From Longimicrobiales bacterium (GTDB lineage Bacteria > Gemmatimonadota > Gemmatimonadetes > Longimicrobiales > RSA9): a stretch of DNA of 64,000 bases. This document shows positions 1,738 through 47,989 of this stretch, in pieces. How positions within the stretch are numbered: the first letter of the stretch is position 1; each line of letters starts with the position of its first letter. The stretch covers positions 55 through 64,054 of the forward strand of contig DATKDR010000010.1 in assembly GCA_035512635.1 (NCBI GenBank), written 5' to 3'. The notes below the pieces were generated by a model. It had not been told where the DNA came from and ran no database searches. It saw only the letters and a list, made by a program, of their open reading frames with translations. The position numbers and the translations under genes are program-made.

Positions 1738-4077
1738 CTACTGGTCATCGGACCGGAACCTCGGCGTGAAGCGGGTCATCGACGCGTACGGATCCGGCCA
1801 CTCGTAGCCGTAGCCCATCTCGTACGCCGCGTGGCGCGTCCAGTACGGGTTCCACAGATGCATGCGCGCCATCAGGCACAGGTCCGCCCGACCCGCCGCG
1901 AGGATCGTGTTCACATCGGTGAACGACGAGATGTTGCCGACAGCCATGGTCGGCACGCCGGCCTCGTGCCGGATCCGATCGCTGAACGGCGTCTGGAACA
2001 GGCGACCGTATACGGGCTCCTGGTCCGCGACCGTCTGGCCGGCCGACACGTCGATGGCGTCGCAGCCGTGCGCCCTGAACGCGCGCGCGATCTCGACGGC
2101 CTCGGCGGAATCGACGCCGTCCGGCTTCCAGTCGACGGCCGAGATGCGCACGGACATCGGTTTGTGCTGCGGCCACACGGTGCGGATCGCGTCGAACACC
2201 TCGAGCGGATAGCGCAGCCGATTCCCGAGCGGGCCGCCGTACTCGTCGCCGCGCACGTTGGTGAGCGGTGACACGAAGCTGGCCAGCAGGTAGCCGTGCG
2301 CGCAGTGCAGCTCGAGCCAGTCGAAGCCCGCCTGGTCGGCGAGCCGCGTCGCGTTCACGTAATCGGCGAGGACGCGATCCATATCGGCGCGATCCATCGC
2401 CTTCGGCACCTGGCTGTGCGGCAGGTACGGGATCGCGGACGCGCTCATGATCGGCCAGTTGCCCTCCGGCAGCGGCTCGCAGTCGCCCTGCCAGATCAGA
2501 CACGTCGATGCCTTCCGGCCGGCGTGGCCGAGCTGCACGCCCATCTTTGCGCGCGAGTGCCCGTGGACGAAGTCGACGATTCGCTTCCAGGCCGTCGCGT
2601 GCTCCGGCTTGTACAGCCCCGTGCAGCCGGGCGAGATGCGCGCCTCGCGGCTGACATCCGTCATCTCCGCCATGACCAGCGCGGCACCGCCGATCGCGCG
2701 GCTGCCGAGGTGCACGAGGTGCCAGTCGCCGGGCGTGCCGTCGTCCGCACTGTACTGGCACATGGGCGAGACGACGACGCGGTTGTGCAGCCCGAGCTCG
2801 CGCACGCGCCACGGCGTGAAGAGCGGTGGCGGCGGCGGGTCGAGCGGCACGTCGATGCCGCTCTGCGCGGCGGCTTCGGCCGCGAACCAGCGGTCGACGG
2901 CTTCGACGAAGGCGGGATCGCGCACGCGCAGGTTGTCGTGCGTGACGCGCAGCGAGCGCGTGAGCAGCGTGAACGCGAACTGGAGCGGATGGTGCTCCAT
3001 GTAGCGCTCCGTCTCCTCGAACCACTGGAGGCTCACCTGCGCCGCGCGCTGGGTGGACTCGACCGTTTTCCGGCGGCCCTCCTCGTATTCCGCGAGGGCG
3101 GCTCCCAGATCGTAGCCAATCGCCCGCCTACCGCTTTGGGCGTCAGGCGTCAGGCGTCGGGCTTCAGAGACGGCGCAACGGTGGTTCTGTAGCGCCTGGG
3201 CCAGCGCGATTGCGTCCTCCATGGCCAGCTTGGTGCCCGAGCCGATCGAGAAGTGCGCCGTGTGCGCGGCATCCCCGATCAGCACGACGGGGACGTCCGC
3301 CATCGCCGCCCAGCGTGCGTTGCGCACGGTCGCGAACTGCCGCCACACCGAGCGGTTCGCCACCAGCGGGTGGCCCTCGAGCTCCTCGGCGAAAAGCCGC
3401 TCGCAGAAGGCGACGGTATCGCTCTCGCTCGCCCGGTCCATGCCCGCGGCGCGCCACGTCGCTTCCGTCGTCTCGACGATGAACGTCGACTGTCCGCCGT
3501 CGTATTGATAGGTGTGAACGCGCCAGAGGCCGTGCTCGTCCTCGCGGAAGTAGAAGGTGAAGGCGGGGAAGGGGCGTGTCGTGCCGAGCCAGACGAAGCG
3601 GTTGGGTCGCACGTCGAGCGTCGGAACGAACAGGTGGGCGTACCGTTCCCGCAACGCGCTATTGGCGCCATCGGCCCCGATCAGGAGGTCGGCATCCCGC
3701 TGGACTACGGCCGGATCGACGTCGTCGCCGAAGCGGACGTCGACGCCCTCCCCGAGCGCGCGGTCGGCCAGGATGTCGAGCAGCGCGCGCCGCGAGAGAC
3801 CGCTGAAGCCGTGGCCGGTGGACGTGATCTTCCGGCCGCGATAGTGCACGTCGATGTCGTCCCAGCGCGCGAAGCGCTCCGACATGCGCCGGAACGTCTC
3901 GGGATCGGCGTCGGCGAGGTTGTGACCGGTGGCGTCGGAGAAGACGACGCCGAAGCCGAACGGATCGTCGCGCTGATTGCGCTCGTGCACGACGACCTCG
4001 CACGACCGATCGGCGCGCCGCAACAGCGTGGAGAAGAAGAGGCCGGCGGGCCCGCCGCCGACGACCGCGACCTTCAT
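1738..4077 (-). CDS. Bifunctional aryl-CoA monooxygenase/reductase (2-aminobenzoyl-CoA monooxygenase-reductase or salicylyl-CoA 5-hydroxylase type)
   Basis: 779 aa from ATG 4077. N-terminal FAD monooxygenase (VVGGGPAGL, GDAAHTAHFSIGSGTKLAMEDA) is fused to a C-terminal Old Yellow Enzyme domain (SPMCQY, HCAHGYLL). The upstream part of the 1055-aa ORF is Arg/Gly-rich junk overlapping the next gene. Confidence 0.85.
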   Translation of the reverse strand: MKVAVVGGGPAGLFFSTLLRRADRSCEVVVHERNQRDDPFGFGVVFSDATGHNLADADPETFRRMSERFARWDDIDVHYRGRKITSTGHGFSGLSRRALLDILADRALGEGVDVRFGDDVDPAVVQRDADLLIGADGANSALRERYAHLFVPTLDVRPNRFVWLGTTRPFPAFTFYFREDEHGLWRVHTYQYDGGQSTFIVETTEATWRAAGMDRASESDTVAFCERLFAEELEGHPLVANRSVWRQFATVRNARWAAMADVPVVLIGDAAHTAHFSIGSGTKLAMEDAIALAQALQNHRCAVSEARRLTPDAQSGRRAIGYDLGAALAEYEEGRRKTVESTQRAAQVSLQWFEETERYMEHHPLQFAFTLLTRSLRVTHDNLRVRDPAFVEAVDRWFAAEAAAQSGIDVPLDPPPPPLFTPWRVRELGLHNRVVVSPMCQYSADDGTPGDWHLVHLGSRAIGGAALVMAEMTDVSREARISPGCTGLYKPEHATAWKRIVDFVHGHSRAKMGVQLGHAGRKASTCLIWQGDCEPLPEGNWPIMSASAIPYLPHSQVPKAMDRADMDRVLADYVNATRLADQAGFDWLELHCAHGYLLASFVSPLTNVRGDEYGGPLGNRLRYPLEVFDAIRTVWPQHKPMSVRISAVDWKPDGVDSAEAVEIARAFRAHGCDAIDVSAGQTVADQEPVYGRLFQTPFSDRIRHEAGVPTMAVGNISSFTDVNTILAAGRADLCLMARMHLWNPYWTRHAAYEMGYGYEWPDPYASMTRFTPRFRSDDQ
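3139..3166. repeat. Heptamer run GGCGTCA GGCGTCA GGCGTCG GGCTTCA inside the monooxygenase CDS
   Basis: Four tandem 7-nt units. This is the reverse complement of the intergenic unit GCCTGAC at 44467-44487. Confidence 0.6.
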
Positions 4078-5267
4078 CGCGCGTTCCCGGCCGCGTGCAT
4101 CAGCTCGCGCGCGATGACCAGGTGCTGGATCTCGGTCGTGCCCTCGTAGATGCGCAGCGCGCGGATCGAGCGGTACAGTCGATCGACGGGATGGTCGGCC
4201 ATGACGCCGCCCCCGCCGAGGATCTGCACCGCGTCGTCGATGATGCGCTGCGCCGCCTCGGTCGCGTACGCCTTCGCCATCGAGGAATGCAGCGCGAGCG
4301 AGGCGACGGCGCCGCGGTCCGCTTCCAGCGCGGCGCGATACGTCAGCAGGCGCGCGGCGTCCAGCTCCGTCGCCATGCGCGCGAGCTTTTCCTGCACGAG
4401 CTGGAAACGCGAGAGGGGGCGGCCGAACTGCTCGCGCTCGCGGGCGTGCGCGATCGCCTCGTGCAGCGCGCGCGCGGCCATGCCGCACGCCGCGCCCGCC
4501 ACCGTGCAGCGCAGCCGGTCGAGCGTGCCCATGCCGAGGCGGAAGCCCGCGCCCTCGGGACCGAGCCGGTTCGCGATGGGCACGCGGCAGCCCTCGAACG
4601 CGAGCTCCCCCAGCGGGTGCGGCGCGGACATCACCTGCGGCCGCACGAAGCTCATGCCCTCGGCTCCCGCGTAGACGACGAAGCAGGTGAGCGCCTCCTT
4701 GCCGCGCGCAGGGTCGACCGTTGCGAAGACGATGTAGTAGTCGGCGATGCCGGCGTTGGAGATGAAGATCTTGCGGCCGTCCAGCACGTAATCGCTGCCG
4801 TCGCGGCGTGCGGTCGTCGCGATGGCGCCCACGTCGCTGCCGGCCTCGGGCTCGGTCATCGCGAACGCGGCCATCGCGCGTCCCTCGATGGTGTGGCCGA
4901 GCCATTCGTCGCGCAGCGCCTGCGCCGCCTCGCGCGAGACATCGTCGACGAGCGGATCCTCCGAGGCGAGGATGAGCGGCATCGAGCCGAGCGCCTGTAG
5001 CGCGTAGACGGCGTCGGCCAGCGGAGACGCCCAGGCGAGCGCTTCGCGCAGGATGACGATGCTGGTCAGGTCGCTCTGCCGGATCGGCTCGAGCAGCTTC
5101 GCCTCGCCCAGCAGCCCCAGGATCTCGCGCGCCTGCGCGCGTGCGTCGTCGTCCGTGTCGGCATCCGGCAGCGGCGCGATGCGGTCGCGCGCGAAGACGT
5201 GTGCTCGGGCGGCGAGCTCAACGGCGGCGGGTGTGTCGAACGGAATCGGTGGACGGACGATGGACAT
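4074..5267 (-). CDS. Acyl-CoA dehydrogenase
   Basis: 397 aa from ATG 5267. Motifs FAMTEPEAGSD and RIYEGTTEIQ. ATGA overlap with the downstream monooxygenase gene. Confidence 0.85.
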   Translation of the reverse strand: MSIVRPPIPFDTPAAVELAARAHVFARDRIAPLPDADTDDDARAQAREILGLLGEAKLLEPIRQSDLTSIVILREALAWASPLADAVYALQALGSMPLILASEDPLVDDVSREAAQALRDEWLGHTIEGRAMAAFAMTEPEAGSDVGAIATTARRDGSDYVLDGRKIFISNAGIADYYIVFATVDPARGKEALTCFVVYAGAEGMSFVRPQVMSAPHPLGELAFEGCRVPIANRLGPEGAGFRLGMGTLDRLRCTVAGAACGMAARALHEAIAHAREREQFGRPLSRFQLVQEKLARMATELDAARLLTYRAALEADRGAVASLALHSSMAKAYATEAAQRIIDDAVQILGGGGVMADHPVDRLYRSIRALRIYEGTTEIQHLVIARELMHAAGNAR

Positions 5268-7947: not shown

Positions 7948-8745
7948 TTACGAGAACTTCGCCTCGCGCTTCGCAGTGAACGCCTCGTACGCCTCGCGGA
8001 AGTTCGGGTCGAGCATGCACGCGGCCTGGATCTGCGTCTCCCACGCCATCGCGGACTCGAGGTCCATCGACCATTCGCGGTCGAGCGATTCCTTGGTCAC
8101 GGCCAGGCCGAAGGACGGCCCGCGCGCGAGCCGCCCCGCCAGCGCCGTGGCCTCGCCCAGCGCCGCGCCGTCCGGTACCACGCGGTTGTAGAGCCCGATG
8201 CGATGCGCCTCGGCGGCATCGATGAAGTCACCAATCATGAGCAGCTCGCTCGCACGGCCGTGGCCGACCAGGCGCGGCAGCAGCCAGGAGGCGCCCATGT
8301 CGGCTCCGGAAAGGCCGACCTTCACGAACAGGAAGGCGATCTTCGCCGATTCGGCGGCGATGCGGAGGTCGCACGCGGCGGCCATCACGGCACCCGCACC
8401 GGCGACCGTGCCGTTCAGCGCGGCGACCACGGGACGGCGGCACCTGCGGATCGCCGCGACCAGATCGCCGGTCACGCGCGTGAAATCGAGCAGCCCCTGA
8501 TAGTCGCGCTCGAGGAGGGGGCCGATGATGTCCTCGACGTCACCGCCCGAGCAGAATGCGCGGCCGGCCCCGGTGAGCACGATGGCGCGTACACCGGGCT
8601 CGGCGTCCAGGGCGATAAACGTGTCGCACAGCTCCTTGTAGACATCGAACGTGAGCGCGTTCAGCCGTTCCGGCCGGTTGAGCGTGATCGTCGCGACGCC
8701 GCTGCGCGCATCCAGGCTGTACAGGAAGCTCTTGGGACTGATCAT
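7948..8745 (-). CDS. Enoyl-CoA hydratase/isomerase (crotonase) family
   Basis: 265 aa. Motifs ITLNRPERLNAL and GAGRAFCSGGD. Confidence 0.85.
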   Translation of the reverse strand: MISPKSFLYSLDARSGVATITLNRPERLNALTFDVYKELCDTFIALDAEPGVRAIVLTGAGRAFCSGGDVEDIIGPLLERDYQGLLDFTRVTGDLVAAIRRCRRPVVAALNGTVAGAGAVMAAACDLRIAAESAKIAFLFVKVGLSGADMGASWLLPRLVGHGRASELLMIGDFIDAAEAHRIGLYNRVVPDGAALGEATALAGRLARGPSFGLAVTKESLDREWSMDLESAMAWETQIQAACMLDPNFREAYEAFTAKREAKFS

Positions 8746-8747
8746 CC

Positions 8748-8866
8748 GGTAGTCGGTATCGTTAATCGGTCGTCGGTATCCGGTATTCAGTATTCGGCAG
8801 TCGGAGTCCGGCAGGCGGCAATCGATTACCGTTTACCGCATACGTCTACTGTCTACGGTATAACGG
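8748..8866. repeat. Degenerate heptanucleotide array, about 17 units, consensus GTATCCG
   Basis: GGTAGTC GGTATCG TTAATCG GTCGTCG GTATCCG GTATTCA GTATTCG GCAGTCG GAGTCCG GCAGGCG GCAATCG ATTACCG TTTACCG CATACGT CTACTGT CTACGGT ATAACGG. It fills the whole ridA/crotonase gap and overlaps the last 14 nt of ridA. Confidence 0.85.
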
Positions 8867-9254
8867 CCGTGGCTTCGATCTCGATGACGGCATCCTCGTC
8901 GACGAGTGCGGAGACCTCGACGACGGACATGGCGGGATAGTGCCGCCCCATGCGCGCGCGCCAGACGGCGCCGATCTCCTTCAGCTGACGCCGGTACTCC
9001 TTCAGGTCGGTCATGAAGATGGTCATGCGCGCGATGTCGTTCGGGCGGCCACCCGCCGACTCGACCACCATCAGCACGTTGGCCAGCGCTTGCTCCCACT
9101 GGTCGACGAGTCCTCCTTCGACGATGCGACCGGCGGGATCGCGCGCCGTCTGGCCGGCGACGAAGAGGATGCCGCCGCCGGGGGGCGCGAGCATGCCGTT
9201 GGTCCAGCCGCGCGGCTCGCCGAGCGGCTCGGGATTGATCGACTGGAGACTCAT
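8853..9254 (-). CDS. RidA/YjgF/TdcF-family reactive-intermediate deaminase
   Basis: 133 aa with the typical length and C-terminal VEIEATAV-type signature. Its TAG stop lies inside the heptamer array. Confidence 0.8.
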   Translation of the reverse strand: MSLQSINPEPLGEPRGWTNGMLAPPGGGILFVAGQTARDPAGRIVEGGLVDQWEQALANVLMVVESAGGRPNDIARMTIFMTDLKEYRRQLKEIGAVWRARMGRHYPAMSVVEVSALVDEDAVIEIEATAVIP

Positions 9255-10847: not shown

Positions 10848-12374
10848 ATGTTCGAGCCACCCGAGGTGTTCAACATCGCGGACTACTTCCTGGACGCGCG
10901 CGTCCGCGAGGGGAGGGGAGATCGCGTCGCGCTGCGCACCGACGACGCCGACTGGAGCTACGCCGAGGTGCAGGCGCTCGCCAATCGCTGGGGCAATGTG
11001 CTGCGCGAAGCCGGCGTGCAGCCGGAGCAGCGCGTCCTGCTGGGCACGCTCGACTCGCCCGACCACGTGGGCGCGCTCTTCGGCGCGCTCAAGATCGGCG
11101 CCGTGCCCGTGATGGTCAATCCGTTCCTGAAGGCGGACGCGATCGCCTGGTTCTACGAGTATACGGGCGCGAGCGCCGCCGTGGTGCACGCAGAGACGTC
11201 CGCACCGTTCCAGACGGCGCGAGCCGGCGCCCGTCGCCTGCGCGAGCTGATCGTCGCCGACGACGCCGATTTCCGCCGCCGCCTCGACGCCGCGTCCGCC
11301 GTGCTGGATCCCGAGCCGACGCACCGCGACGACGCCGCCATCTGGCTCTTTTCCGGCGGCACCACGGGCAGGCCGAAGGCGGTCGTGCAGACGCATCGCT
11401 CGTACGCCAACTCGACGGAATGCTACGGCAAAGGCGTGCTCGGACTCACGGAGGACGACGTCACCATCTCCGTGCCGAAGCTCTTCTTCGGCTACGCGAT
11501 GGGCACGAACCTGTTCTTCCCGTTCTCCGTCGGCGCCTCCTGCGTGCTCTTCCCCGAACGCTGCACCCCGGCGGCGATCCTGGACCGCATCGAGCGCTTT
11601 CGCCCGTCCGTCCTCGTGACCGTGCCGACGATGGTGCAGCAGATGCTCGCCGATCCGACGCTCGCGAAGCGCGACCTGTCCTCGCTGCGGCTCGCGACCT
11701 CGGCGGGCGAGGCGCTGCCGCTCGAGCTGCACCGGCGCTGGAACCGCGCGTTCGGCATCGAGCTGCTCGACGGCCTCGGCACCGCCGAGATGTGGCACGT
11801 CTTCATCTCGAACCGGCCGGGCGCGGTGCGCCCGGGCACGCTCGGCACCGTCGTCCCGGGCTTCGACGTGCGCGTGCGCGACGACGGCGGCAGCGACCTC
11901 CCGGACGGGCAGGTCGGCTGGCTCTGGGTACGCGGCGACTCGCGCGCGCTCGGCTACTGGCGGCACATGGACCGGACCAAGGAGGCGTTCCGCGGCGAGT
12001 GGTACGTTTCCGGCGACATGCTGAGCCGCGCCACGGACGGCTACTTCTCGTACGCGGGGCGGGGAGACGACATGCTGAAGGTGTCCGGCCGCTGGCTGTC
12101 GCCGCAGGAAGTGGAAAACTGCCTGTTGCAGCACCCGGGCGTGCGGGAGGCGTGCGTGGTCGGAGTGGTCGAAGGGGATGGTCTCACGCGGCCGCACGCG
12201 TACGTCGTGGCCGCGTCCGACGCGGACGCACGGACGCTGGCGGACGATCTCGACGCCTTCGTGCGCAAGCGTCTCGAGTCCTACAAGGTGCCGCGCCGGG
12301 TCGTCCTCATGGACGACCTGCCGCGCACGCACCTGGGGAAGGTCGACCGCGGCCGCCTGCGCGTGTCCGCATGA
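10848..12374 (+). CDS. Aryl-CoA ligase, benzoate/2-aminobenzoate-CoA ligase family (AMP-forming)
   Basis: 508 aa from ATG 10848. Motifs SGGTTGRPK, GYWR and KVSGRWLSP. TATGTT at 10836-10841 lies 6 nt before the ATG and there is no SD. Confidence 0.85.
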   Translation: MFEPPEVFNIADYFLDARVREGRGDRVALRTDDADWSYAEVQALANRWGNVLREAGVQPEQRVLLGTLDSPDHVGALFGALKIGAVPVMVNPFLKADAIAWFYEYTGASAAVVHAETSAPFQTARAGARRLRELIVADDADFRRRLDAASAVLDPEPTHRDDAAIWLFSGGTTGRPKAVVQTHRSYANSTECYGKGVLGLTEDDVTISVPKLFFGYAMGTNLFFPFSVGASCVLFPERCTPAAILDRIERFRPSVLVTVPTMVQQMLADPTLAKRDLSSLRLATSAGEALPLELHRRWNRAFGIELLDGLGTAEMWHVFISNRPGAVRPGTLGTVVPGFDVRVRDDGGSDLPDGQVGWLWVRGDSRALGYWRHMDRTKEAFRGEWYVSGDMLSRATDGYFSYAGRGDDMLKVSGRWLSPQEVENCLLQHPGVREACVVGVVEGDGLTRPHAYVVAASDADARTLADDLDAFVRKRLESYKVPRRVVLMDDLPRTHLGKVDRGRLRVSA

Positions 12375-13723: not shown

Positions 13724-13744
13724 ATTCAGTCGTCAGTCGTCAGT
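13724..13744. repeat. Short heptamer run ATTCAGT CGTCAGT CGTCAGT
   Basis: Three units located 44 nt after the DUF892 stop. Confidence 0.5.
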
Positions 13745-24829: not shown

Positions 24830-25207
24830 TCAGGCAGTGGGGCCGACGGCGACCCCCTCCAGCAGCCGCGTCGTCTCGTCCTGGAGCAGCGCCCAGATCG
24901 TGTAGATCCCGAGCAGCGTGCCGAGCGGCGCGTTGAACAGGTTGAGCACGCCGAGCACGAAGCCGAGCGGCCGCGCCCACGACGTCAGCTTCCAGAAGCC
25001 CCAGGCGAGGATGAGTCCCGGCAGACCGATCAGCAGCAGGAAGAAGCCGAGGATCGATCCCAGCCCGGCCAGGAAGCTGAAGGCGAAGACGTCGCCGCTC
25101 AGGAGACCGGCGCCGCCCAGGATGCCGAAGATCGCGAACGCCGCGATCACCTCGCCGATCGAAGCCAGCAGGTAGAGGAGCGCGAGGACGTTCAGGTGTG
25201 TGCGCAT
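24830..25207 (-). CDS. Small integral membrane protein (4 TM), hypothetical
   Basis: 125 aa, highly hydrophobic, with an AGGAG SD. Confidence 0.6.
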   Translation of the reverse strand: MRTHLNVLALLYLLASIGEVIAAFAIFGILGGAGLLSGDVFAFSFLAGLGSILGFFLLLIGLPGLILAWGFWKLTSWARPLGFVLGVLNLFNAPLGTLLGIYTIWALLQDETTRLLEGVAVGPTA

Positions 25208-25221
25208 CGGGTCTCCTGAAT

Positions 25222-25311
25222 GTAGCCAGTAGACGGTATCCGGTAGACGAAAAGCGTCAGGCCGACGTGATGCTGACGTCTACCGTATACCGTATACCGT
25301 ATACTGGCTAC
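25222..25311. repeat. Inverted pair of heptamer arrays forming a long imperfect hairpin
   Basis: Left arm GTAGCCAGTAGACGGTATCCGGTAGACG (25222-25249). Right arm CGTCTACCGTATACCGTATACCGTATACTGGCTAC (25277-25311). Inner hairpin CGTCAG (25255-25260) / CTGACG (25273-25278). Confidence 0.8.
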
Positions 25312-25313
25312 TC

Positions 25314-25961
25314 CTAAGCGGTCAGCTCCCGCACCAGGAAGTCGCGCGCGAGCGTGCCCACCTGCTCCATCGTGCCGGGCTCCTCGAACAGGTGCGTCGC
25401 ACCGGGAACGATGACCAGCTCGTGCGGCGCGGCGAGTCGCGCGGCGGCGCTTCGGTTCATCTCGATGACCGGGTGGTCGAGGCCGCCGACGATGAGCAGC
25501 ACGGGCGCGCGCACCAGGGACAGCGCGTCCTCCGCCAGATCGGGACGGCCGCCGCGTGACACCACGGCGCGCACGGTATCCGGCCGCTCCGCGGCGGCGA
25601 GCAGGGCGGCGGCGGCGCCGGTGCTCGCGCCGAAGGTGCCGATCGGCAGCTGCGCCGTATTCTCCCGCGACGACAGCCAGTCGCAGGCGGCGACGACCCG
25701 GCGCGCGAGCAGCGGAATGTCGAAGCGGAGGTGCGCGGTGGTGGCGTCGACACGCTCTTCCTCCCGCGTCAACAGGTCGATCAGGAGCGTCGCCAGTCCG
25801 GCATCGCGGAGCACGCGCGCGATGTAGCGGTTGCGGCTGCTGAAGCGGCTGCTGCCGCTGCCGTGCGCGAAGCAGACGACACCGTTAGCGCCGTCGGGGA
25901 TGCCGAGCGAGCCGTCGATCTGCGCATCGGCTGCCGTGAAGCGGACATCCTCTTCGCTCAT
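25314..25961 (-). CDS. Dienelactone hydrolase-family alpha/beta hydrolase
   Basis: 215 aa from ATG 25961. Motifs VCFAHGSGSS and GASTGAAAAL (nucleophile elbow). ATGA overlap with the PRTase gene. Confidence 0.8.
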   Translation of the reverse strand: MSEEDVRFTAADAQIDGSLGIPDGANGVVCFAHGSGSSRFSSRNRYIARVLRDAGLATLLIDLLTREEERVDATTAHLRFDIPLLARRVVAACDWLSSRENTAQLPIGTFGASTGAAAALLAAAERPDTVRAVVSRGGRPDLAEDALSLVRAPVLLIVGGLDHPVIEMNRSAAARLAAPHELVIVPGATHLFEEPGTMEQVGTLARDFLVRELTA

Positions 25962-26602
25962 GGGCGCGATTCCGCGAGCAGCGCTCGCACCTCGTCGTCG
26001 GTGACCTGCCGGAAATCGTCGTACCAGAGACCCACCGCCTGGAAGGGCTCGGGCGTCATCGCGCACACGATCTCGTCGATGGACGGGTCGCGGCAGAAGT
26101 CGTCGCGCGTCTCACGAGCCGCCACCGGCACGGCGACGACGACGCGCGCGGGATCGCTGCCACGCACCGCCGCGGCCGCGGCGCGCATCGTCGCGCCGGT
26201 CGCGAGGCCGTCGTCGACGAGGATGACGACCCGACCCTTCAGGTCGGGAGCCGGGCGGGCGCCGCGGTATTCGCGATCCCGTCGCTCCAGCTCGCGCGCC
26301 TCCTGCATCGCGACGGCGGCAATGGCATCCTCCGAGACATCCAGCATCGAGATGACGTCGGGATTGAGCACGCGCACGCCCCCGGACGCGATCGCGCCGA
26401 TCGCCAGCTCGGCGTGGCCCGGGGCGCCCAGCTTGCGCACCAGAAACACGTCCAGCGGCGCGTCGAGCACGCGAGCCACCTCGCGCGCCACCGGAATCCC
26501 GCCGCGCGGCAGGCCCAGCACGAGGACATCCTGGCCGCGATAGCGCTCCAGTCGGCTTCCCAGCTCGCGGCCGGCTTCGGTTCGATCGCGAAAAGTCCGC
26601 AT
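25958..26602 (-). CDS. Phosphoribosyltransferase-domain protein
   Basis: 214 aa from ATG 26602. PRPP-binding motif VILVDDGLATGATM. Confidence 0.8.
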   Translation of the reverse strand: MRTFRDRTEAGRELGSRLERYRGQDVLVLGLPRGGIPVAREVARVLDAPLDVFLVRKLGAPGHAELAIGAIASGGVRVLNPDVISMLDVSEDAIAAVAMQEARELERRDREYRGARPAPDLKGRVVILVDDGLATGATMRAAAAAVRGSDPARVVVAVPVAARETRDDFCRDPSIDEIVCAMTPEPFQAVGLWYDDFRQVTDDEVRALLAESRP

Positions 26603-27576: not shown

Positions 27577-27664
27577 TCGCTACACCCCCCTCGGAGGTCG
27601 TTCGGGATTAGACAGCAGGAAAACATAGACCGGAACCAGCGGGAAGTCCAGGCGCCCCAGCCGG

Positions 27665-27699
27665 TCTACCGTCTACCGTCTACCGTCTACTGTCTACGG
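27665..27699. repeat. Heptanucleotide array TCTACCG x3, TCTACTG, TCTACGG
   Basis: Five exact-phase units. The trkH TAG stop (27687-27689, minus strand) lies inside unit 4. Confidence 0.9.
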
Positions 27700-37984: not shown

Positions 37985-38078
37985 GGTAGACTGTATACGG
38001 TACTCGGTACGCCCGTATATCGTTATACCGTCTACGGGATACCGGATACCGGATACTGGATACCGTATACGGAGTACG
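37985..38078. repeat. Degenerate heptamer array with core GGATACC GGATACC GGATACT GGATACC
   Basis: Exact core at 38037-64, flanked by GTCTACG, TTATACC, GTATACG and GAGTACG-type units. Confidence 0.85.
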
Positions 38079-38118
38079 GAGCTTTCCTCCGCCCGCCTGC
38101 CGGAATAGCTTCCGCGCC

Positions 38119-39597
38119 ATGAGCGATTCGACCGATCTGCGCGTGCGTTTCGCGCCTTCACCGACCGGCTATCTCCACGTCGGCGGCGCGCGCACTGCGC
38201 TCTTCAACTGGCTGTACGCCCGACGTCACGGCGGCACCTTCGTGCTGCGCATCGAGGATACGGACCGCGCGCGCTCGAGCACCGAGCACACGCGCGCGAT
38301 CCTGGACGGCATGATCTGGCTCGGGCTCGACTGGGACGAGGGCCCGTACCACCAGGCGGACGGGCTGGACCGACATCGCGCCGACGCGTTGCGCATGCTG
38401 GAGGCGGACAAGGCGTATCGCTGCTTCTGCTCCGCCGGGGTGCTCGACGAAAAGCGCGCAGCCGCGCAGGCGCGCAAGGAGAACTGGCGCTACGACCGCC
38501 ACTGCCTGCGGAACGTGACGCCCGAGGAGTCCGCGCGCCGCGCCGCCGCGGGCGAGCCGCACACGATCCGCTTCTTCGTGCCGGAGGGGAAGACGGAGTG
38601 GGACGACGCGGTGCACGGCGTGGTCTCGTTCGCGAACGCGGACCTCGAGGACTTCATCATCCTGCGCAGCGACGGCACGCCCATCTACAACCTGGCCGTC
38701 GTCTCCGACGACATCGAGATGCGCATCACGCTCGTGCTGCGCGGCGACGACCACATCTCGAACACGCCGAAGCAGATCCTGCTCTACCGCGCGCTGGACG
38801 CGGCAGTGCCGCGTTTCGCTCACGTCCCGATGATCCTCGGCGCCGACGGCAAGCGACTGTCCAAGCGGCACGGCGCGACCGCGATCGGCGAATACGAGGA
38901 CCAGGGCATCCTGCCGCAGGCGATGGTCAACTTCCTCGCCCTGATCGGCTGGGGTCCCGGCGAGGAGCGCGAGATCTTCACCATCGACGAGCTGATCGAG
39001 CGCTTTTCGCTCGAGGGCATCGTCAGGAAGGCGGGCGTCTTCGATCCGACCAAGCTCGAGTGGCTGAACGGTCAGCACCTCTCGCGCACACCGGCGCTCG
39101 AGCTCGAGCCGATGGTGACGGAGAAGCTCGTGAATGCCGGCCTGGTCACGCATACCGAGCTGGACGAGCGGCGCGACTGGTATCTGCACCTCATCGATCT
39201 GCTCAAGGAGCGCGCGCGCAACCTCGACGACTTCCTGCGGCAGGCGCGGCCCTATTTCGCGCCCGGCGTCGCATACGATGACGAGGCGCTCGCCAAGCAC
39301 TGGAAGAACGCCGAAGAGACCGCGGCTCGCATGCGGGCGCTGCACGACCGCTTCGCGACCGTGTCCGAAAGCGACTGGAATCCGGAGGGACTCGAGCCCG
39401 TCCTGCGCGCGCTCGCCGACGAGCTGGGCACGAGCGCCGCAAAGCTGATCCATCCCGCGCGCGTCGCGGTCACCGGCATGAACGTCTCGCCCAGCATCTT
39501 TCAGGTGCTGACGGCCCTCGGAAAGAAGAAGACGCTCACGCGCCTCGAGCAGGCGATCGAGCGGATCCCGGCCGCGGCAGGACAGGTGGCTCCGTGA
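38119..39597 (+). CDS. gltX: Glutamate--tRNA ligase
   Basis: 492 aa. PSPTGYLHVGGARTAL (HIGH) and GKRLSKRHG (KMSKS). Confidence 0.95.
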   Translation: MSDSTDLRVRFAPSPTGYLHVGGARTALFNWLYARRHGGTFVLRIEDTDRARSSTEHTRAILDGMIWLGLDWDEGPYHQADGLDRHRADALRMLEADKAYRCFCSAGVLDEKRAAAQARKENWRYDRHCLRNVTPEESARRAAAGEPHTIRFFVPEGKTEWDDAVHGVVSFANADLEDFIILRSDGTPIYNLAVVSDDIEMRITLVLRGDDHISNTPKQILLYRALDAAVPRFAHVPMILGADGKRLSKRHGATAIGEYEDQGILPQAMVNFLALIGWGPGEEREIFTIDELIERFSLEGIVRKAGVFDPTKLEWLNGQHLSRTPALELEPMVTEKLVNAGLVTHTELDERRDWYLHLIDLLKERARNLDDFLRQARPYFAPGVAYDDEALAKHWKNAEETAARMRALHDRFATVSESDWNPEGLEPVLRALADELGTSAAKLIHPARVAVTGMNVSPSIFQVLTALGKKKTLTRLEQAIERIPAAAGQVAP

Positions 39598-40876: not shown

Positions 40877-41079
40877 GTGTCCTCCCCGCCGAGCAGGCGG
40901 ATCGATATTCCGGCGTGCCGGCCTGAGGAATGATACGGATCGCGCTTTCGAAGTACACCTTCGACCGGCGCCACCGCATCCGGTGTTACGCCGCTGCGGA
41001 CGCACCCATAAGGCCGCATCACCATATGGCCAAACGGGTTGACACGTCGGCCATCACCGGCTAGCTTGCGGCTCTTCCT

Positions 41080-42686: not shown

Positions 42687-43625
42687 ATGCCTCGCATCCT
42701 GGTCGCCGAATCGCTCCGCAGGTTCCTCGAGCGTGAGCCCGGCGAGAATAGCCGCGCAGTCCAGCTCTTCGACGAGCGCGCGCCCCTTCCCGCGGGTGAG
42801 TGCGTCGCCATCCTGCCGACCGTCGTCTGTCGCGTGGACGCCGACGCGATGGACCGGCTGAGCGGCCTGCGCGTCATCGCGAACTACGGCGTCGGCTACG
42901 ACAACATCGATGTCGAAGCGGCGAGACGTCGCGGCATAGCCGTGACCAACACACCCGACGTGCTGACCGGCGCGACTGCCGAGCTGACCTGGGCGCTGAT
43001 CCTGGCGGTGGCGCGCCGGCTGGGCGAGGGAGAGCGGCTCGCGCGCTCCGGCGCGTGGTCCGGCTGGACCCCGACGCAGCTCCGCGGCATGTCACTGGAA
43101 GCGCGCACGCTGGGCGTCATCGGCGCGGGGCGCATCGGGCGAGAGGTGGCGCGGCGCGCGCCCGCGTTCGGCATGCGCATCGTCTACAGCGATCGGCTGC
43201 CGGCCGCCGAGCTCGAGCGCGACGTCCACGCGCGCCTGGTGCCGCTCGAGGAGCTGCTCGCGGTCGCGGACGTCGTCACGATCCACGTCGCGCTGACGCC
43301 GCGTACCCGGCACCTGATCGGCACCGCGGCGCTCGCGCGCATGAAGCCGGGGGCGATCCTGGTGAACACATCGCGCGGAGCGGTGGTCGACGAGGACGCG
43401 CTCACGGCCGCGCTGCGCGAGGGGCGCCTGCGCGGCGCGGGGCTCGACGTCTACGAGCGGGAGCCGCACATCCCCGAAGCGCTGCGCTCGCTCGACAATG
43501 TGGTGCTGCTGCCGCATCTCGGCAGCGCCACGGACGAGGCGCGTCAGGCGATGTGGGACGTCGCCTGGAAGAACCTCCGGCTGGCGGTGAGCGACCAACC
43601 GCTCGCGAATCCGGTCGCCTGGTGA
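42687..43625 (+). CDS. D-isomer-specific 2-hydroxyacid dehydrogenase (glyoxylate/hydroxypyruvate reductase-like)
   Basis: 312 aa. GVIGAGRIGREVARR and NTSRGAVVDE. Confidence 0.85.
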   Translation: MPRILVAESLRRFLEREPGENSRAVQLFDERAPLPAGECVAILPTVVCRVDADAMDRLSGLRVIANYGVGYDNIDVEAARRRGIAVTNTPDVLTGATAELTWALILAVARRLGEGERLARSGAWSGWTPTQLRGMSLEARTLGVIGAGRIGREVARRAPAFGMRIVYSDRLPAAELERDVHARLVPLEELLAVADVVTIHVALTPRTRHLIGTAALARMKPGAILVNTSRGAVVDEDALTAALREGRLRGAGLDVYEREPHIPEALRSLDNVVLLPHLGSATDEARQAMWDVAWKNLRLAVSDQPLANPVAW

Positions 43626-44071
43626 ATCGGATCCGGCCGCTGCGACCCGAGGATTCTCGCGATCGGGCCGAGTGGCTGCGCATGCGGCACGGCCTCTGGC
43701 CGGACGAGGATCACGCGACGGAAGCGCCGCTCGTCCTCGAGCAGCGGCACGGCCCGTACGAAGTTCTCGTGCTGCCGCGCGACGATGGCTGTCTCGCGGG
43801 CTTCATCGAGGTGGGCGAGCGCAATTACGCCGAAGGCTGCGAGACCACGCCCGTCGCCTACATCGAAGGATGGTGGGTGGACGAGGACGTGCGGCGCACG
43901 GGTGCCGGCCGAGCGCTCGTCCGCGCGGCCGAAGAGCGGGCGATCGCGCGAGGCCATCGCGAGATCGCCAGCGACGCGGTGATCGACAATCGCGTCAGTA
44001 TCCTCGCACACCGCGCACTCGGCTTCGACGAGGTCGAGCGCCAGGTCTGCTTCCGCAAGGATCTGAGATGA
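43622..44071 (+). CDS. GNAT acetyltransferase resembling AAC(6')-I aminoglycoside N-acetyltransferases
   Basis: 149 aa from GTG 43622 (GTGA overlap). LWPDE, YAEGCETTPVAYIEGWWV, REIASD and HRALGFDEVER recall AAC(6')-Iy/Ii-type proteins. Confidence 0.6.
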   Translation: MNRIRPLRPEDSRDRAEWLRMRHGLWPDEDHATEAPLVLEQRHGPYEVLVLPRDDGCLAGFIEVGERNYAEGCETTPVAYIEGWWVDEDVRRTGAGRALVRAAEERAIARGHREIASDAVIDNRVSILAHRALGFDEVERQVCFRKDLR

Positions 44072-44460
44072 GCGCGCACGATCCGGCGCGCGAGCGGACG
44101 CCGGCGGAGCTGGCGGCGATCGAGCGGCTGACCGAGCTGTGCGCGCCGTTGCCTGAGGTCACGATGGCCCGCGACGGCTTCGGTCACACCGTGTTCAAGG
44201 TGGGCGCCAGGTCCATCGTCATCCTGGGCGATGGCGGCCGCGCGGACGGCGCATTCATGTCGATCAACGTCGACCGCGAGACGCAGCGCTTCCTGATCGA
44301 GCACGCGGGCTTCCAGCGGACGCCGTACATCGGCCAGCACGGCTGGAGCTCGATCGACGTCGACGACACCGTCGACTGGAATCACATCGCCGAGCTGGTG
44401 CGCGCCGCCTATCGCCGCGTGGCACCGAAACGACTGGTGAAGCGGCTCTCGCCGGAGTAA
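44068..44460 (+). CDS. MmcQ/YjbR-family protein
   Basis: 130 aa. FGHTVFKVG and PYIGQHGWSSIDV. ATGA overlap with the upstream gene. Confidence 0.7.
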   Translation: MSAHDPARERTPAELAAIERLTELCAPLPEVTMARDGFGHTVFKVGARSIVILGDGGRADGAFMSINVDRETQRFLIEHAGFQRTPYIGQHGWSSIDVDDTVDWNHIAELVRAAYRRVAPKRLVKRLSPE

Positions 44461-44466
44461 CGCGAT

Positions 44467-44487
44467 GCCTGACGCCTGACGCCCGCT
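44467..44487. repeat. Short heptamer run GCCTGAC GCCTGAC GCCCGCT
   Basis: Lies in the 28-nt gap between convergent genes. It is the complement of the unit at 3139-3166. Confidence 0.5.
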
Positions 44488-44488
44488 T

Positions 44489-45091
44489 CTAGTCGAACTG
44501 CACCTGCGGCGCGGCCTCCGTTCCTTCCGGCGCGTCGAAGGTGTCGCGTCGCTCCGCCCCGATCACCTTCGCCGTGAGCAGCTGCGGGAACTGGCGGATG
44601 TAGGTGTTGTAGACCGCGACCGATTCGTTGTAGTCGCGACGCGCCACGTTGATGCGGTTCTCGGTCTCGGCCAGCTCGTCCTGAAGGCGCTGGAAGTTCT
44701 GCGTCGCGTTGAGCTGCGGGTACGCCTCGACGGCGACGTTGAGGAACAGGCGCAGGTTCTCGCCGACCGCGGCCGCCGCCTGCGACAGCTCTGCGGGCGG
44801 AGCGTCGCCCTCGACCGCGGCGGCGAGCTGCTCGCGCGACTGGTTGAGCCCGGCGCGCGCCTGGGCCACGTGGGTGAAGGTCTCCTGCTCGAACTCGGCC
44901 GCTTCGTCGACGGTTGCCACCAGGTTCGGGATCAGATCGTTCCGTCGCAGCAGCTCCGATTCGATGTTGCCCTCGGTCTGGTTCACGTTCTCCTCCAGCT
45001 CCTGGATGCGGTTGTAGCCGCAGCTCGAAAGCAGGGCGATCAGCGGCAGCAGGAGCAGCGGGCGCGTCGTCTTTGCGTTCATCGATGTCAT
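44489..45091 (-). CDS. LemA-family protein
   Basis: 200 aa from ATG 45091. N-terminal anchor/lipobox LLSSCGYN, RRNDLIPNLV and YNTYIRQFP. ATGA overlap with the upstream gene. Confidence 0.85.
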   Translation of the reverse strand: MTSMNAKTTRPLLLLPLIALLSSCGYNRIQELEENVNQTEGNIESELLRRNDLIPNLVATVDEAAEFEQETFTHVAQARAGLNQSREQLAAAVEGDAPPAELSQAAAAVGENLRLFLNVAVEAYPQLNATQNFQRLQDELAETENRINVARRDYNESVAVYNTYIRQFPQLLTAKVIGAERRDTFDAPEGTEAAPQVQFD

Positions 45092-45819
45092 GGCAGAGTG
45101 TCCACGTGGTCGGCCATGCGCTCGGCGAGGCCGTAGTAGTCGGCGACGATCGGGTCGTCGATCTTCGCTTCCAGCTTCCTGCCGGCCCAGCGCGCTTCCC
45201 ATACGGCCGCGAAGGGCGCGGGGTCGGCGACGATCACTTCGGCGGTCGCCAGGATCACCGATGGCGTGTCGCGGGGCACGTCGCGACCGGCGAGGCGCAG
45301 CGTCGCGCGCATGTAGGCGGTAAACGACGGCAGTGCCGCGCTGAGCAGCCAGCCCAGCTCGGCCGGCGACTCCGCGGCCAGCAGCGTGCCTTCACGGAGC
45401 TGGAGCAGCTTCCCACGCAGCTCCCGCTCGGTCTGGAGGCGCAGCTCGTGTCGCTTCGGCTCCAGGGCGGCGACCGGATCCGTGCCGAACAGCAGCTCGT
45501 GCGCTTCCTTCATGTCCGCGACCTCGATGGCGAACACGTCCGCCGCGCGCTTCCACTCGCGCTCGGTCAGGATGAGCGGCGGGCCGCCCGCGCTCTCCAG
45601 CCACTCGCGCGCGAGCGGCGCGAGCGCTCGCAGCTGGTCCGGCCGGGCCTCGTCGAGCAGCACCAGCACGTTCACGTCGCTGACGCCCGCGATCGCCTCC
45701 TCGCGTGCGACCGAGCCGTGCAGCACGACCGAGCGCAGGTTCGTCCCCGCCCGCTCGCGCAAGCCAGCCGTCAGTCGCTGCGCGGAATCGCGCGGGTTCG
45801 TATTCAGCATGCCTCCCAT
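45088..45819 (-). CDS. Nucleotidyltransferase (Pol-beta superfamily)-domain protein
   Basis: 243 aa. LHGSVAREEAIAGVSDVNVLVLL (GS...D.D/N signature) plus a helical C-terminal domain. GGGGGAGG SD. Confidence 0.65.
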   Translation of the reverse strand: MGGMLNTNPRDSAQRLTAGLRERAGTNLRSVVLHGSVAREEAIAGVSDVNVLVLLDEARPDQLRALAPLAREWLESAGGPPLILTEREWKRAADVFAIEVADMKEAHELLFGTDPVAALEPKRHELRLQTERELRGKLLQLREGTLLAAESPAELGWLLSAALPSFTAYMRATLRLAGRDVPRDTPSVILATAEVIVADPAPFAAVWEARWAGRKLEAKIDDPIVADYYGLAERMADHVDTLP

Positions 45820-45835
45820 CTGGGCCTCCCCCTTT

Positions 45836-45880
45836 TACCGTTTCCGGATTCCGGATTCCGGATTGCGGATAGCGGATCCG
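45836..45880. repeat. Heptamer array TACCGTT TCCGGAT x3 TGCGGAT AGCGGAT
   Basis: Exact TCCGGAT units at 45843-49, 45850-56 and 45857-63. It fills the gap from the TPM stop (45881) to the SD of the next gene. Confidence 0.85.
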
Positions 45881-46726
45881 TCACCAGCTCCCGCCGGCGC
45901 CGCCGCCACTGAAGCCGCCGCCGCCACCAAAACCACCGAACCCGCCGCCGCCTCCGAAACCGCCGAAGCCACCGCGTCGCCCTCCACCGAGCGGGAAGGG
46001 GATCGGCAGGATGAGCGGCATGCCGCGTCGGCGCCCGCGGCGGAAACCCCGTCCGCCGCCGCCGCCCCGGAAGATGCGCGAGATCCCGAGGAACAGCAGG
46101 ATCAGCAGGATGATGGTAAACAGGGACGGTCCACCACCGCCGCCGACCGGGCCGCGGTCGTCGCGTGGGTAGTCGCCGGTCAGCTCGAAATCGAAGTGCT
46201 CGGCATACATCTCCGCGAGCGCTACCACCCCGACCAGGATACCGCCGCCGTAGTCCCCCTCGCGGAATGCGGGAATCATCACGCGATCCCGGATCCGTCC
46301 CGCCTCGGTCGCCGTGATGAACGTGTTGGTGCGGTCTCCGAGCTCGAGCTTGACGTGCCCCTGTCCGTCGGCGCTCGTCTCCTTCGGCACCACCAGCACC
46401 ACGGCGCCCGTGTTGCGCGCCTGGTCCCCCGCCTCGCCCGCGGGACCGATGCGCCACTGCCGTCCGATCTCCAGCGCGACTTCGTCGCGGCTCCGTCCGC
46501 CCGGTAGCGTCGAAAGCGTCACGACCACGATCTCGCCGCCGCTCTTTGCGCGCACCTCGTCCACGACGTTCCGGATCGATGCCTCGACGTTTTCCGGAAT
46601 CACGTCGGCGAAGTCGTTCACGTAGCCGACCGGCTCGGGCAGCTCCACGCGCTGCGCGGCGGCCGGCTCAGCCATCCCGGCGGCTCCGCCTGCCAGGGCG
46701 AGGACGGAAAGTCGAAGACGATTCAT
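45881..46726 (-). CDS. TPM-domain (YgcG-like) protein with Gly-rich C-terminal tail
   Basis: 281 aa. Signal peptide, YVNDFADV, one TM helix, then a GGFGGFGGGGGF tail. Confidence 0.85.
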   Translation of the reverse strand: MNRLRLSVLALAGGAAGMAEPAAAQRVELPEPVGYVNDFADVIPENVEASIRNVVDEVRAKSGGEIVVVTLSTLPGGRSRDEVALEIGRQWRIGPAGEAGDQARNTGAVVLVVPKETSADGQGHVKLELGDRTNTFITATEAGRIRDRVMIPAFREGDYGGGILVGVVALAEMYAEHFDFELTGDYPRDDRGPVGGGGGPSLFTIILLILLFLGISRIFRGGGGGRGFRRGRRRGMPLILPIPFPLGGGRRGGFGGFGGGGGFGGFGGGGGFSGGGAGGSW

Positions 46727-46884
46727 CGAGGCGGCAAGCTAGGCAATCGGCGTGCGCGACCCAAATTCATTGCGCGGCGTTTGGCGGGACGCGGGCGGCT
46801 CGCGTGGCCGGCGTCCTGCGTCACCGCATGCGGAGGAGCCGCGAGGAGAGTCGCGCTGGAGCTGGACCGATACGGGAGGAAGCC

Positions 46885-47268
46885 ATGAGGAAGCTGGCCA
46901 TCGTCATGGGCGCGCTGGCGCTCGGCGCGTGCGCGTCGTCCGGCGGGCCGGAAGCCGCGCAGCCGGACGTCGTGTGCACGCTGGAGGCGCGCTCCAGCGT
47001 CGCGGTCACCGTGCTGGACGCCGTAACCGGCGAGAATCTCGCACCCGAAGCGACGGTGCGAGTGACGGATGGCACGTTCGCGGAAAACCTTGTGGCGACG
47101 CCCGGGACCGGCGTCTACAGCGGCGTCGTCTACGAGCGCGAGGGGACGTACACCATCGTCGTGTCGCGTCCGGAATACGATCAGTGGCAGCGGGCGGGTG
47201 TCGTGGTGGAACGGGACGAGTGTCACGTGATCACGGAGGAAGTGACGGCGCGCCTCACGCCGCGTTAG
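46885..47268 (+). CDS. Small lipoprotein, carboxypeptidase-regulatory-like domain
   Basis: 127 aa. GGGAGGA SD. Lipobox LGAC. Similar in size and style to the 42285 product. Confidence 0.55.
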   Translation: MRKLAIVMGALALGACASSGGPEAAQPDVVCTLEARSSVAVTVLDAVTGENLAPEATVRVTDGTFAENLVATPGTGVYSGVVYEREGTYTIVVSRPEYDQWQRAGVVVERDECHVITEEVTARLTPR

Positions 47269-47311
47269 TGTGACCACGCGAAACATTGACGGTAGCTGCT
47301 CGTCGTATAGC

Positions 47312-47354
47312 GGAAACCGGAAACCCGGATACTGGATACTGGATACTGGATACT
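47312..47354. repeat. Heptamer array GGAAACC x2 (plus C), then GGATACT x4
   Basis: GGATACT units at 47327-33, 34-40, 41-47 and 48-54. The array ends 8 nt before ATG 47363. Confidence 0.9.
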
Positions 47355-47362
47355 GAATTCCA

Positions 47363-47989
47363 ATGAACTCGCCGACGATCGACGCCCTGACGGTGCGGCC
47401 CCCACGAACGAGGGAAGAGATCCTGCTCGAGCTGGCGCGTCTCGCGGCGGAGGTGGAGCGCGTGGCGGGGCGGTTCGATACCGCGACCTTCTTCGCGCCC
47501 CAGATGGAGGACGGCACCCTCCGCTGGTCGCCCGCCGAGCAGGTCCGTCACCTCACCAAGTCGACGTATCCGCTGGCCCGCGCGTATGGGCTGCCGCGCT
47601 TCCTGCTCCTGCTGCGTTTCGGCCTGAGCCTGCGACCTTCGGCGGGCTACGTGGAGCTCGACGCGCGCTACACCCGTCTGCTCGAAAGCCGACCGGACTC
47701 GGGACGCTACGCGCCGCGGCCCGAGCAGAGGCGCGACGATGAGCGTCGGGCGGAGATCATGGCCCACTGGCGCGACGCGATCTCGCGCCTCTCGCAGGCG
47801 GCCGGCACGTGGTCGGAGCGCGCGCTCGACCGGTTCCGACTGCCGCACCCGCTGCTGGGTCACCTCACGACGCGCGAGATGCTCTTCTTCACGGTGTTCC
47901 ACACGTCGCATCACGGCCGGCAGATGGCGCGGCGGGCAGCCGCGCAGGATGCCGCGCCGCTCAGCCCTCCTCGGCCGGCTTCCCCATGA
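47363..47989 (+). CDS. DinB-superfamily (DinB_2-like) protein
   Basis: 208 aa, four-helix pattern with FHTSHHGRQ. The 3' end overlaps the convergent nhaC-like gene by 29 nt. Confidence 0.7.
   Translation: MNSPTIDALTVRPPRTREEILLELARLAAEVERVAGRFDTATFFAPQMEDGTLRWSPAEQVRHLTKSTYPLARAYGLPRFLLLLRFGLSLRPSAGYVELDARYTRLLESRPDSGRYAPRPEQRRDDERRAEIMAHWRDAISRLSQAAGTWSERALDRFRLPHPLLGHLTTREMLFFTVFHTSHHGRQMARRAAAQDAAPLSPPRPASP

Follow-up and report, generated by a model that had tools for sequence, protein, structure and literature searches.

Heptanucleotide tandem arrays behind stop codons in a Longimicrobiales genome: probable slippage-driven microsatellites of 3′ spacers

The stretch of DNA analyzed here in full (referred to as the window) comprises 64,000 nucleotides of contig DATKDR010000010.1 from a Longimicrobiales bacterium of the phylum Gemmatimonadota (metagenome-assembled genome GCA_035512635.1) and carries tandem arrays of 7-nt units at ten loci, labeled A1 to A10. 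These arrays are probably heptanucleotide microsatellites that are driven by replication slippage and tolerated in the spacers 3′ of genes, some of them being expanded 3′ hairpins, and they would be typical of this Longimicrobiales lineage. What is new is the lineage and the units of an already known kind of repeat, which is otherwise ordinary for its class, together with two modest additions, namely a match to the arrays of Xanthomonas without G-tracts and a series of terminators expanded in heptamer steps.

A self-match detector (score of at least 12) returned eight period-7 arrays in the window, compared with 0.08 on average and never more than 2 in 200 dinucleotide-preserving shuffles of it, and thus the shuffled-sequence check proposed in the first-pass annotation left the arrays far above expectation. 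The same detector found none at periods 4, 5, and 8–12 and two at period 6. All ten period-7 loci listed in that annotation were recovered at their coordinates; it had presented them as intergenic, which is true of nine, whereas one lies inside an open reading frame. The lag-7 self-match fraction ranges from 0.59 to 0.93 per locus, versus 0.22–0.30 in shuffles (z 4.3–9.3), and no other lag exceeds 0.50 at any reported locus. According to a gene map based on codon usage, about 90% of the window lies in genes; the non-coding remainder (~6.6 kb, 10% of the window) holds 7/8 of the detector arrays and 9/10 of the reported loci, so the enrichment of intergenic over coding DNA that had been put forward for checking is borne out within the window. 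The arrays are also poorer in GC (54.5% versus 69.9% for the window as a whole). As in other heptanucleotide long simple sequence repeats (SSRs), head-to-tail copies of a 7-nt unit run longer than chance allows, and coding DNA is avoided, with a single exception in an inter-domain linker (A10). The window holds 12.5 period-7 arrays per 100 kb versus ~3 in the Gemmatimonadota loci and ~3 in the Acidobacteriota loci; their occurrence in both sets indicates that the phenomenon is general and that the genome of the window is rich in it.

Three of the arrays are inverted pairs. The first-pass annotation had recognized inverted arrays at 25,222–25,311 (A4), correctly, and had missed that 8748–8866 (A2) and 37,985–38,078 (A6) are inverted pairs too; A4 and A6 form long hairpins on both strands, and A2 a weak one. 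The ~17 units assigned to A2 are present, in degenerate form (73% matches in TRF), with a lag-7 fraction of 0.60 over 112 comparisons (z 8.7) and a next-best lag of 0.27. On the minus strand its GTAGAC units precede those of the GGATAC type, and it folds only weakly (z −1.0 sense, −2.2 antisense). A2 occupies the entire gap between a RidA-family gene (8853–9254, minus strand), whose TAG stop falls within an array unit, and an enoyl-CoA hydratase gene (7948–8745, minus strand), stopping 2 nt ahead of the downstream ATG, where no Shine-Dalgarno motif is found. A4, a hairpin of ~35 bp (−51/−56 kcal/mol, z −5.2/−6.6), likewise fills its gap, from the stop of a DLH hydrolase gene (25,314–26,066, minus strand) to the Shine-Dalgarno site of the gene at 24,830–25,207 (minus strand). 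Within its loop, a terminator scan detected a small terminator-like hairpin followed by CTTTTC on the sense (minus) strand (25,267–25,255), and this inner hairpin fits the definition of an intrinsic terminator, i.e., a GC-rich stem-loop with a sense-strand U-tract.

A6 (fold z −2.9/−3.2) begins 4 nt past the TAG stop of a small plus-strand ORF ending at 37,980. The protein encoded by this ORF is kept, with synonymous changes, in the relative L118, which argues that the ORF is real and that A6 lies in a co-directional gap. Downstream, A6 directly adjoins the promoter of gltX (TAGCTT at 38,106–38,111, ATG at 38,119). As a separate observation, gltX lacks a Shine-Dalgarno motif and has a conserved TAGCTT box 7–9 nt ahead of the ATG in the window (38,106–38,121) and in L081, L084, L118, L165, and L166, which suggests that its mRNA is leaderless or nearly so. 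A TAGCTT −10 box also stands ahead of tRNA-Gln (41,062–41,067), after TTGACA at 41,039.

Five of the nine intergenic arrays (A1, A5, A7, A8, and A9) run in one direction and show no structure, with fold z values around zero or positive. A1 (90–128) has 5.6 copies of GTCTACT (TRF score 64; lag-7 fraction 0.91, z 8.2; fold z +0.6/−0.6), and is followed on the plus strand by a GC-rich hairpin with a T-rich tail. It is 86% identical to A5 across 65 nt, flanks included. Directly upstream of A1, a 16-nt direct repeat, ACCTATGTG(C/A)CCGGTC, was noted at 42–57 and 66–81, both copies of which end with the CCGGTC that also heads A1. A5 (27,664–27,699) consists of five GGTAGAC units read on the minus strand, the second of which supplies the TAG that stops trkH; its end and the −35 box of the downstream rpsU promoter (TGGACT at 27,650–27,645 and TATGTT at 27,627–27,622, minus strand) are 13 nt apart. 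The possibility that A5 is a terminator expanded on one arm was rejected, as its TATGTTTTCC tail is the conserved −10 region of the rpsU promoter, found also in L161 and L162. The promoter itself, TGGAC(T/A)-17 nt-TAT(G/C)TT, is conserved in the window, L161, and L162.

A8 (45,836–45,880), with about six GGAATCC-like units read on the minus strand, fills the spacer that begins at the TGA stop of a TPM-domain gene and closes at the Shine-Dalgarno site preceding the next gene; L165 has an ortholog in this position with the unit GGGATTC. At its 3′ end, the TPM-domain gene contains a coding repeat of its own, 27 nt long and present in 2.6 copies (45,906–45,975; CCACCGAAGCCGCCGCCGCCACCAAAA on the plus strand), and a similar repeat was seen in L165 (14,755–14,808). 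A9 (47,311–47,355) joins two copies of GGAAACC to four of GGATACT and stops 8 nt short of the ATG of a DinB-family gene (47,363–47,989, plus strand).

The remaining three loci carry units of a second type. A3 (13,724–13,744), a mini-array of 2.7 CGTCAGT copies, is flanked by two strong plus-strand hairpins, the second of which is terminator-like, and the region has a fold z of −7.2 on that strand. A7 (44,467–44,487; GCCTGAC, 2.4 copies), in a 28-nt convergent gap between a YjbR-like gene and LemA, is the weakest member: it is present where it had been reported, but with 2.4 copies it makes a poor array taken alone. The block that holds A7 to A9 (43,600–48,000, with the YjbR, LemA, TPM, and DinB genes) is syntenic in the 81% relative L165 and missing from the conserved gltX neighborhood in more distant Gemmatimonadota. 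A10 (3139–3167; GGCGTCA, 4.1 copies) is the array inside a reading frame (1738–4905, minus strand), where it lies in the linker between FAD_binding_3 (residues 387–573) and Oxidored_FMN (residues 695–1028). That frame, of 1055 codons, joins an FAD-binding monooxygenase domain to an Old-Yellow-Enzyme domain, and the linker looks as if an earlier intergenic spacer were now read through.

With respect to genes, most arrays begin 0–45 nt past a stop codon, chiefly in co-directional gaps: A2, A4, A5, A6, and A8 abut or overlap the upstream stop, while A3 and A9 begin 44 nt after it (the stop of a DUF892 gene and a TAG, respectively). The statement that arrays lie on either strand relative to transcription was confirmed, as both orientations were seen. 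Their supposed spread over same-operon and convergent gaps alike was confirmed in part only, since the bias is toward co-directional gaps behind stops and the sole convergent case is A7. None of the ~12 divergent gaps in the window contains an array once the small ORF ending at 37,980 is accepted, and promoter UP-elements were rejected because these divergent promoter gaps are array-free. The upstream stop is TAG in 6/8 cases versus a background of 35% (p ~0.025, binomial), an excess due in part to arrays that capture the stop. Stops are in excess in sense over antisense units (10 versus 2), a count biased by the way upstream ORFs were detected; all-frame stop codons as a general rule were rejected, for only some units contain a stop.

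Two unit families can be distinguished, NG(G/T)(A/C)(A/T)(A/T)C (GTAGAC, GTATAC, GGATAC, GGAATC) and CGTCAG(G/T) (the GGCGTCA type). The mean pairwise unit distance among the seven type-1 loci is 1.81 versus 2.97 ± 0.25 for a null of random intergenic heptamers (p ~4e-4), which upholds the earlier proposal of one family with two unit types; over all ten loci, unit similarity reaches p ~0.01. Outside the arrays, GTMKAC and similar words show no enrichment, and a dispersed motif resembling uptake sequences was rejected on this ground. An Rfam scan of the window retrieved two tRNAs only and no RNA family at the arrays, and the layout matches neither integron attC sites nor CRISPR.

Comparison with relatives revealed changes in copy number and in units. 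GTDB species representatives reach a GltX identity to the window of 57–69% at most, and all are Gemmatimonadota. Where the window has the five copies of A5, a relative whose TrkH is 90% identical carries one GGTAGAC, and this copy holds the trkH stop. In the trkH–rpsU gap, L162 (81%) carries inverted hexamer arrays (2281–2372), L163 (76%) a 21-nt array of ~5 copies (11,471–11,591), and L161 no array. Upstream of gltX, the heptamer hairpin of the window corresponds to heptamers of other units in L118 and to a 13-mer array of 5.2 copies in L166 (239–306), with no array in L165. The gaps that bear heptamers in the window thus appear from their orthologs to be repeat-prone regardless of unit, and the different units and periods found at one gap among relatives point to mutation-driven turnover. 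L165, a genus-level relative syntenic with the window (GltX identity 81%), has 4.3 copies of GTAGACC overlapping the stop of a different gene and eight perfect copies of CGTCTAT straight after the TTTT of a terminator, both at sites that are not orthologous to arrays of the window.

A further length change was found in the organism of L167, where 21 kb contain seven heptamer arrays whose units are unrelated, with up to 14.6 perfect copies, beginning 1 nt past the gltX stop. Two assemblies of this organism show no mismatches over 2958 + 1166 nt and differ in the number of AAGCCCA units, 13 versus 11 (L168, 2959–3292, versus L169, 2959–3278); this polymorphism comes from one relative with a gltX identity of 74% and from short-read assemblies, and contigs L170, L171, and L172 end within these same arrays. 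A role of the arrays as slippage hot spots, one of several possibilities raised in the first-pass annotation, is backed by this difference, by one unit versus five at trkH, and by a series of terminators in other relatives.

In Gemmatimonadales, a tRNA-Ser(GCU) gene precedes gltX, and at six loci (L046, L066, L124, L056, L051, and L149) it ends in an ordinary terminator, GAGGACTGAGGAT-loop-GTCCTCAGTCC followed by TTTT. At sister loci with identical flanks, that terminator stem has grown to 3.5–4 heptamer units per arm (L053, 9909–9985; L062, 9921–9993; L058, 3628–3712), and other clades have two-unit stems or expanded stems with different units. The inverted arrays of these relatives, being stems with U-tracts, have the hallmarks of intrinsic terminators. 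Judged by sequence comparison, the inverted-array hairpin in relatives is demonstrably an intrinsic-terminator stem of which both arms have grown one unit at a time. A preference for seven was seen as well: the regions 3′ of 126 tRNA genes are periodic at 7 in 13 cases, at 8 in one, and at other lags in none, while upstream of gltX lag-7 periodicity was found in 11/53 Gemmatimonadota versus 0/24 Acidobacteriota regions, with lag 8 seen once and lags 5, 6, 9, 10, and 11 never.

Based on these data, we propose that replication slippage creates the arrays and makes them longer or shorter, 7 nt at a time, as seen in relatives and by extension in the window. Survival would be confined almost solely to short untranslated spacers right behind stops, mainly co-directional ones, where an array is presumably harmless. 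Coding DNA is expected to be intolerant of 7-nt steps, and divergent promoter gaps would likewise stay free of arrays; persistence in 3′ spacers would follow from a genome that is ~90% coding, in which length changes are probably least harmful there. As TAG-containing units give stops in all three frames, an array can become the stop of the incoming gene. Where arrays of opposite polarity face each other, a long hairpin would form, and such inverted pairs may act as 3′ hairpins. Individual arrays would have no sequence-specific job and would at most provide spacing or a 3′ hairpin for terminating or stabilizing the transcript; no evidence of a sequence-specific role was found in the window or in the relatives compared. 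The common GTAGAC and GGATAC units may stem from seeding in stop-codon and terminator contexts, together with copying between loci.

Several observations sit uneasily with the slippage model. Local slippage alone predicts neither one unit family at seven loci nor the 86% identity of A1 and A5 with their flanks, and L165 uses GTAGACC and CGTCTAT at sites non-orthologous to those of the window. A uniformly short life of the arrays is contradicted by A8, which has persisted at one spot in L165, and the preference for 7 nt is not accounted for by a neutral model. The shared unit family, the reuse in L165, the persistence of A8, and the 7-nt preference keep alive, at low probability, the readings in which a protein binds the arrays or the arrays form a tunable module.

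A rather unlikely alternative is that all arrays are selected RNA 3′-end elements, i.e., terminators, processing sites, or stabilizers against exonucleases, like REP or intercistronic stem-loops, with copy number tuning read-through. Genuine terminators made of heptamer units with U-tracts do exist in relatives, as does the perfect CGTCTAT array directly after a terminator TTTT in L165. Furthermore, when all DNA examined is pooled, 32/59 heptamer arrays (54%) have a reverse-complement partner (at least 11/12 bases) no more than 150 nt away, versus 4/59 in each of two controls. In the window, the placement behind stop codons is consistent with such a function, A4 and A6 fold much better than their shuffles, and A4 encloses a small sense-strand terminator. 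However, A1, A5, A7, A8, and A9 are unstructured (z ~0 or positive), A4 and A6 have no U-tract behind their outer hairpins, the GTTTTCC after A5 belongs to the conserved −10 region of rpsU rather than to a terminator tail, and both orientations occur. In addition, 13 oriented hairpins from relatives examined for G·U versus A·C asymmetry displayed no sense bias in folding energy (mean ~−1.3 kcal/mol, seven negative and six positive), which leaves selection at the RNA level without support.

By analogy with known regulators, the arrays might instead serve to bind a protein that recognizes 7-nt units, either on DNA or on single-stranded RNA, which we consider improbable. The omega repressor, a ribbon-helix-helix dimer that acts upstream of promoters, binds consecutive 7-bp heptads in direct or inverted order; HutP recognizes UAG-N4 repeats on single-stranded RNA; and cold-shock proteins cover single-stranded RNA at one protein per ~7 nt. 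One unit family is common to seven loci and recurs in L165 at other sites, its GTMKAC core is a degenerate palindrome, and GUAGACN can be read as UAG-N4. Direct and inverted arrangements both occur without a transcription-strand bias, and an omega-type heptad layout would be compatible with these and with A5 and A6, which abut promoters. Binding of CspB to heptamer repeats has also been noted (PMC4679880). On the other hand, units are wholly different between close relatives and even within L167 (seven unrelated units in 21 kb), orthologous sites switch to 6-, 13-, or 21-nt periods, the motif is not enriched beyond the arrays, divergent promoter gaps lack them, and no candidate protein was found.

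Equally improbable in our estimate is a wider proposal, in which the arrays are a selected, copy-number-tunable 3′-end module common to Xanthomonas, cyanobacteria, and Gemmatimonadota. Unit number would set the leak of transcription or translation into the next gene, TAG units would act as a frame-independent stop, and a 7-nt-reading protein or polymerase would explain the period. If true, the G-quadruplex explanation offered for Xanthomonas would be incidental, as the same anatomy occurs here without G-tracts.

Spread of the arrays as REP- or MITE-like mobile elements by a dedicated transposase such as RAYT is very unlikely. A1 and A5 are near-copies including their CCGG...CTCSGG flanks, the distribution 3′ of genes is REP-like, and units start with GTAG, like REP heads, which begin GTAG-like (GT(A/G)G). 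Yet the other arrays have no common termini, length varies by 7-nt steps, in-situ expansion at orthologous sites is directly observed in relatives, and a Pfam scan of 20 window proteins gave no match to a transposase family. Lastly, chance clustering or an assembly artefact can be set aside almost entirely: contigs of relatives often terminate within long arrays, a sign that assemblers struggle there, but eight arrays stand against 0.08 expected, the longest in the window measures only 119 nt, a length taken to lie within that of usual short reads, and dozens of independent assemblies, including chromosome-scale ones of 3–8 Mb, have similar arrays.

Slippage-driven heptamers of the kind favored here have precedents, and the earlier belief that no such arrays had been described in a high-GC non-cyanobacterial genome was mistaken, given the arrays of Xanthomonas (PMC4692102) and the high-GC genomes surveyed in 2007 by Mrazek, Guo and Shah (via PMC4679880). 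Xanthomonas, with 65% GC, has ~185 arrays of the heptamer GGGAATC, 89–93% of them intergenic (Rehm et al. 2015, PMC4692102). They lie in co-directional (65–70%), convergent (16%), and divergent (7–8%) gaps, on both strands, overlapping the upstream ORF or, on average, 28 nt away from it, with ~70 convergent inverted pairs; their position is 83% conserved between species and their length is variable (PMC4692102). The arrays of the window resemble these and the GGGGA(C/T)T arrays of Nostoc in being tandem 7-nt repeats of intergenic, co-directional gaps, placed at the upstream stop on both strands and in inverted pairs, and share the high-GC setting with Xanthomonas. Unlike the Xanthomonas and Nostoc units, which have a tract of three or four Gs and form G-quadruplexes, those of the window (GTAGACN, GGATACC, GGCGTCA) contain no GGG and belong to another phylum; GGG-bearing units were seen only in close relatives (GGGCATC in L118, GGGATTC in L165). 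The same anatomy in an unrelated phylum with units unable to form G-quadruplexes weakens the G-quadruplex as a general explanation.

In the 2007 survey, as relayed by later papers, heptanucleotides are the commonest class of long SSR (via PMC4679880 and PMC4692102), the repeat-rich genomes include Burkholderia, Actinobacteria, and Xanthomonas, and slippage is proposed as the cause (via PMC4679880). The arrays of the window share with those SSRs the dominance of heptamers, the setting in large high-GC genomes of non-pathogens, the avoidance of coding DNA, and polymerase slippage as the proposed origin. The survey is older than Gemmatimonadota genomes, and the accounts of it in these papers describe neither a position behind stops nor hairpin pairs. 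Our literature search on heptamers in Gemmatimonadetes found no relevant paper.

The short tandemly repeated repetitive (STRR) sequences of cyanobacteria, named in the first-pass annotation as the closest analogue, are a fair analogue in that both are genome-specific tandem heptanucleotide families in non-coding DNA, but the present arrays are not STRR members: their units differ from those of STRR1–3, and STRR hosts are low-GC cyanobacteria instead of Longimicrobiales. STRR units are CCCCAGT, TTGGTCA, and CAACAGT, and to our knowledge a terminator-expansion series has never been reported for them. STRR heptamers are known from heterocystous cyanobacteria, Calothrix PCC 7601 being the case described (Mazel et al. 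1990, as cited in PMC4692102), and intergenic heptanucleotide arrays have, by that citation, been on record since 1990. TAACTGA repeats, found in Beggiatoaceae, cyanobacteria, and Bacteroidetes, are intergenic heptamers that often stand right before starts without a Shine-Dalgarno motif, like A2 and A9 here (MacGregor 2015, PMC4679880). In contrast to the arrays of the window, they are one fixed unit across phyla, mostly forward to the downstream gene, and inverted pairs are nearly absent, with one indirect set versus 169 direct ones (PMC4679880).

REP and BIME elements also lie 3′ of genes, form hairpins, and can alternate in orientation, whereas REPs are fixed-length palindromic units of 20–40 nt moved by RAYT, without 7-nt periodicity or stepwise lengths. 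The resemblance to intrinsic terminators is closer in relatives, whose inverted arrays are stems with U-tracts, than in the window, where A4 encloses one and most arrays are without a stem, without a U-tract, or without either. The Gemmatimonadales loci provide a series in which inverted arrays grow from ordinary terminator stems in 7-nt steps. In practical terms, arrays of this kind disrupt short-read assemblies, and annotated stop codons may shift.

Tandem arrays of period 8 were also observed in relatives (L044, 2613–2739; L080, 1052–1170; L022, 1–62; L117, 5006–5055), some as inverted hairpin pairs that follow tRNA-Ser(UGA). Period 8 is almost as frequent as period 7 in the Gemmatimonadota loci, with 21 versus 26 TRF rows, and the window has no period-8 arrays.
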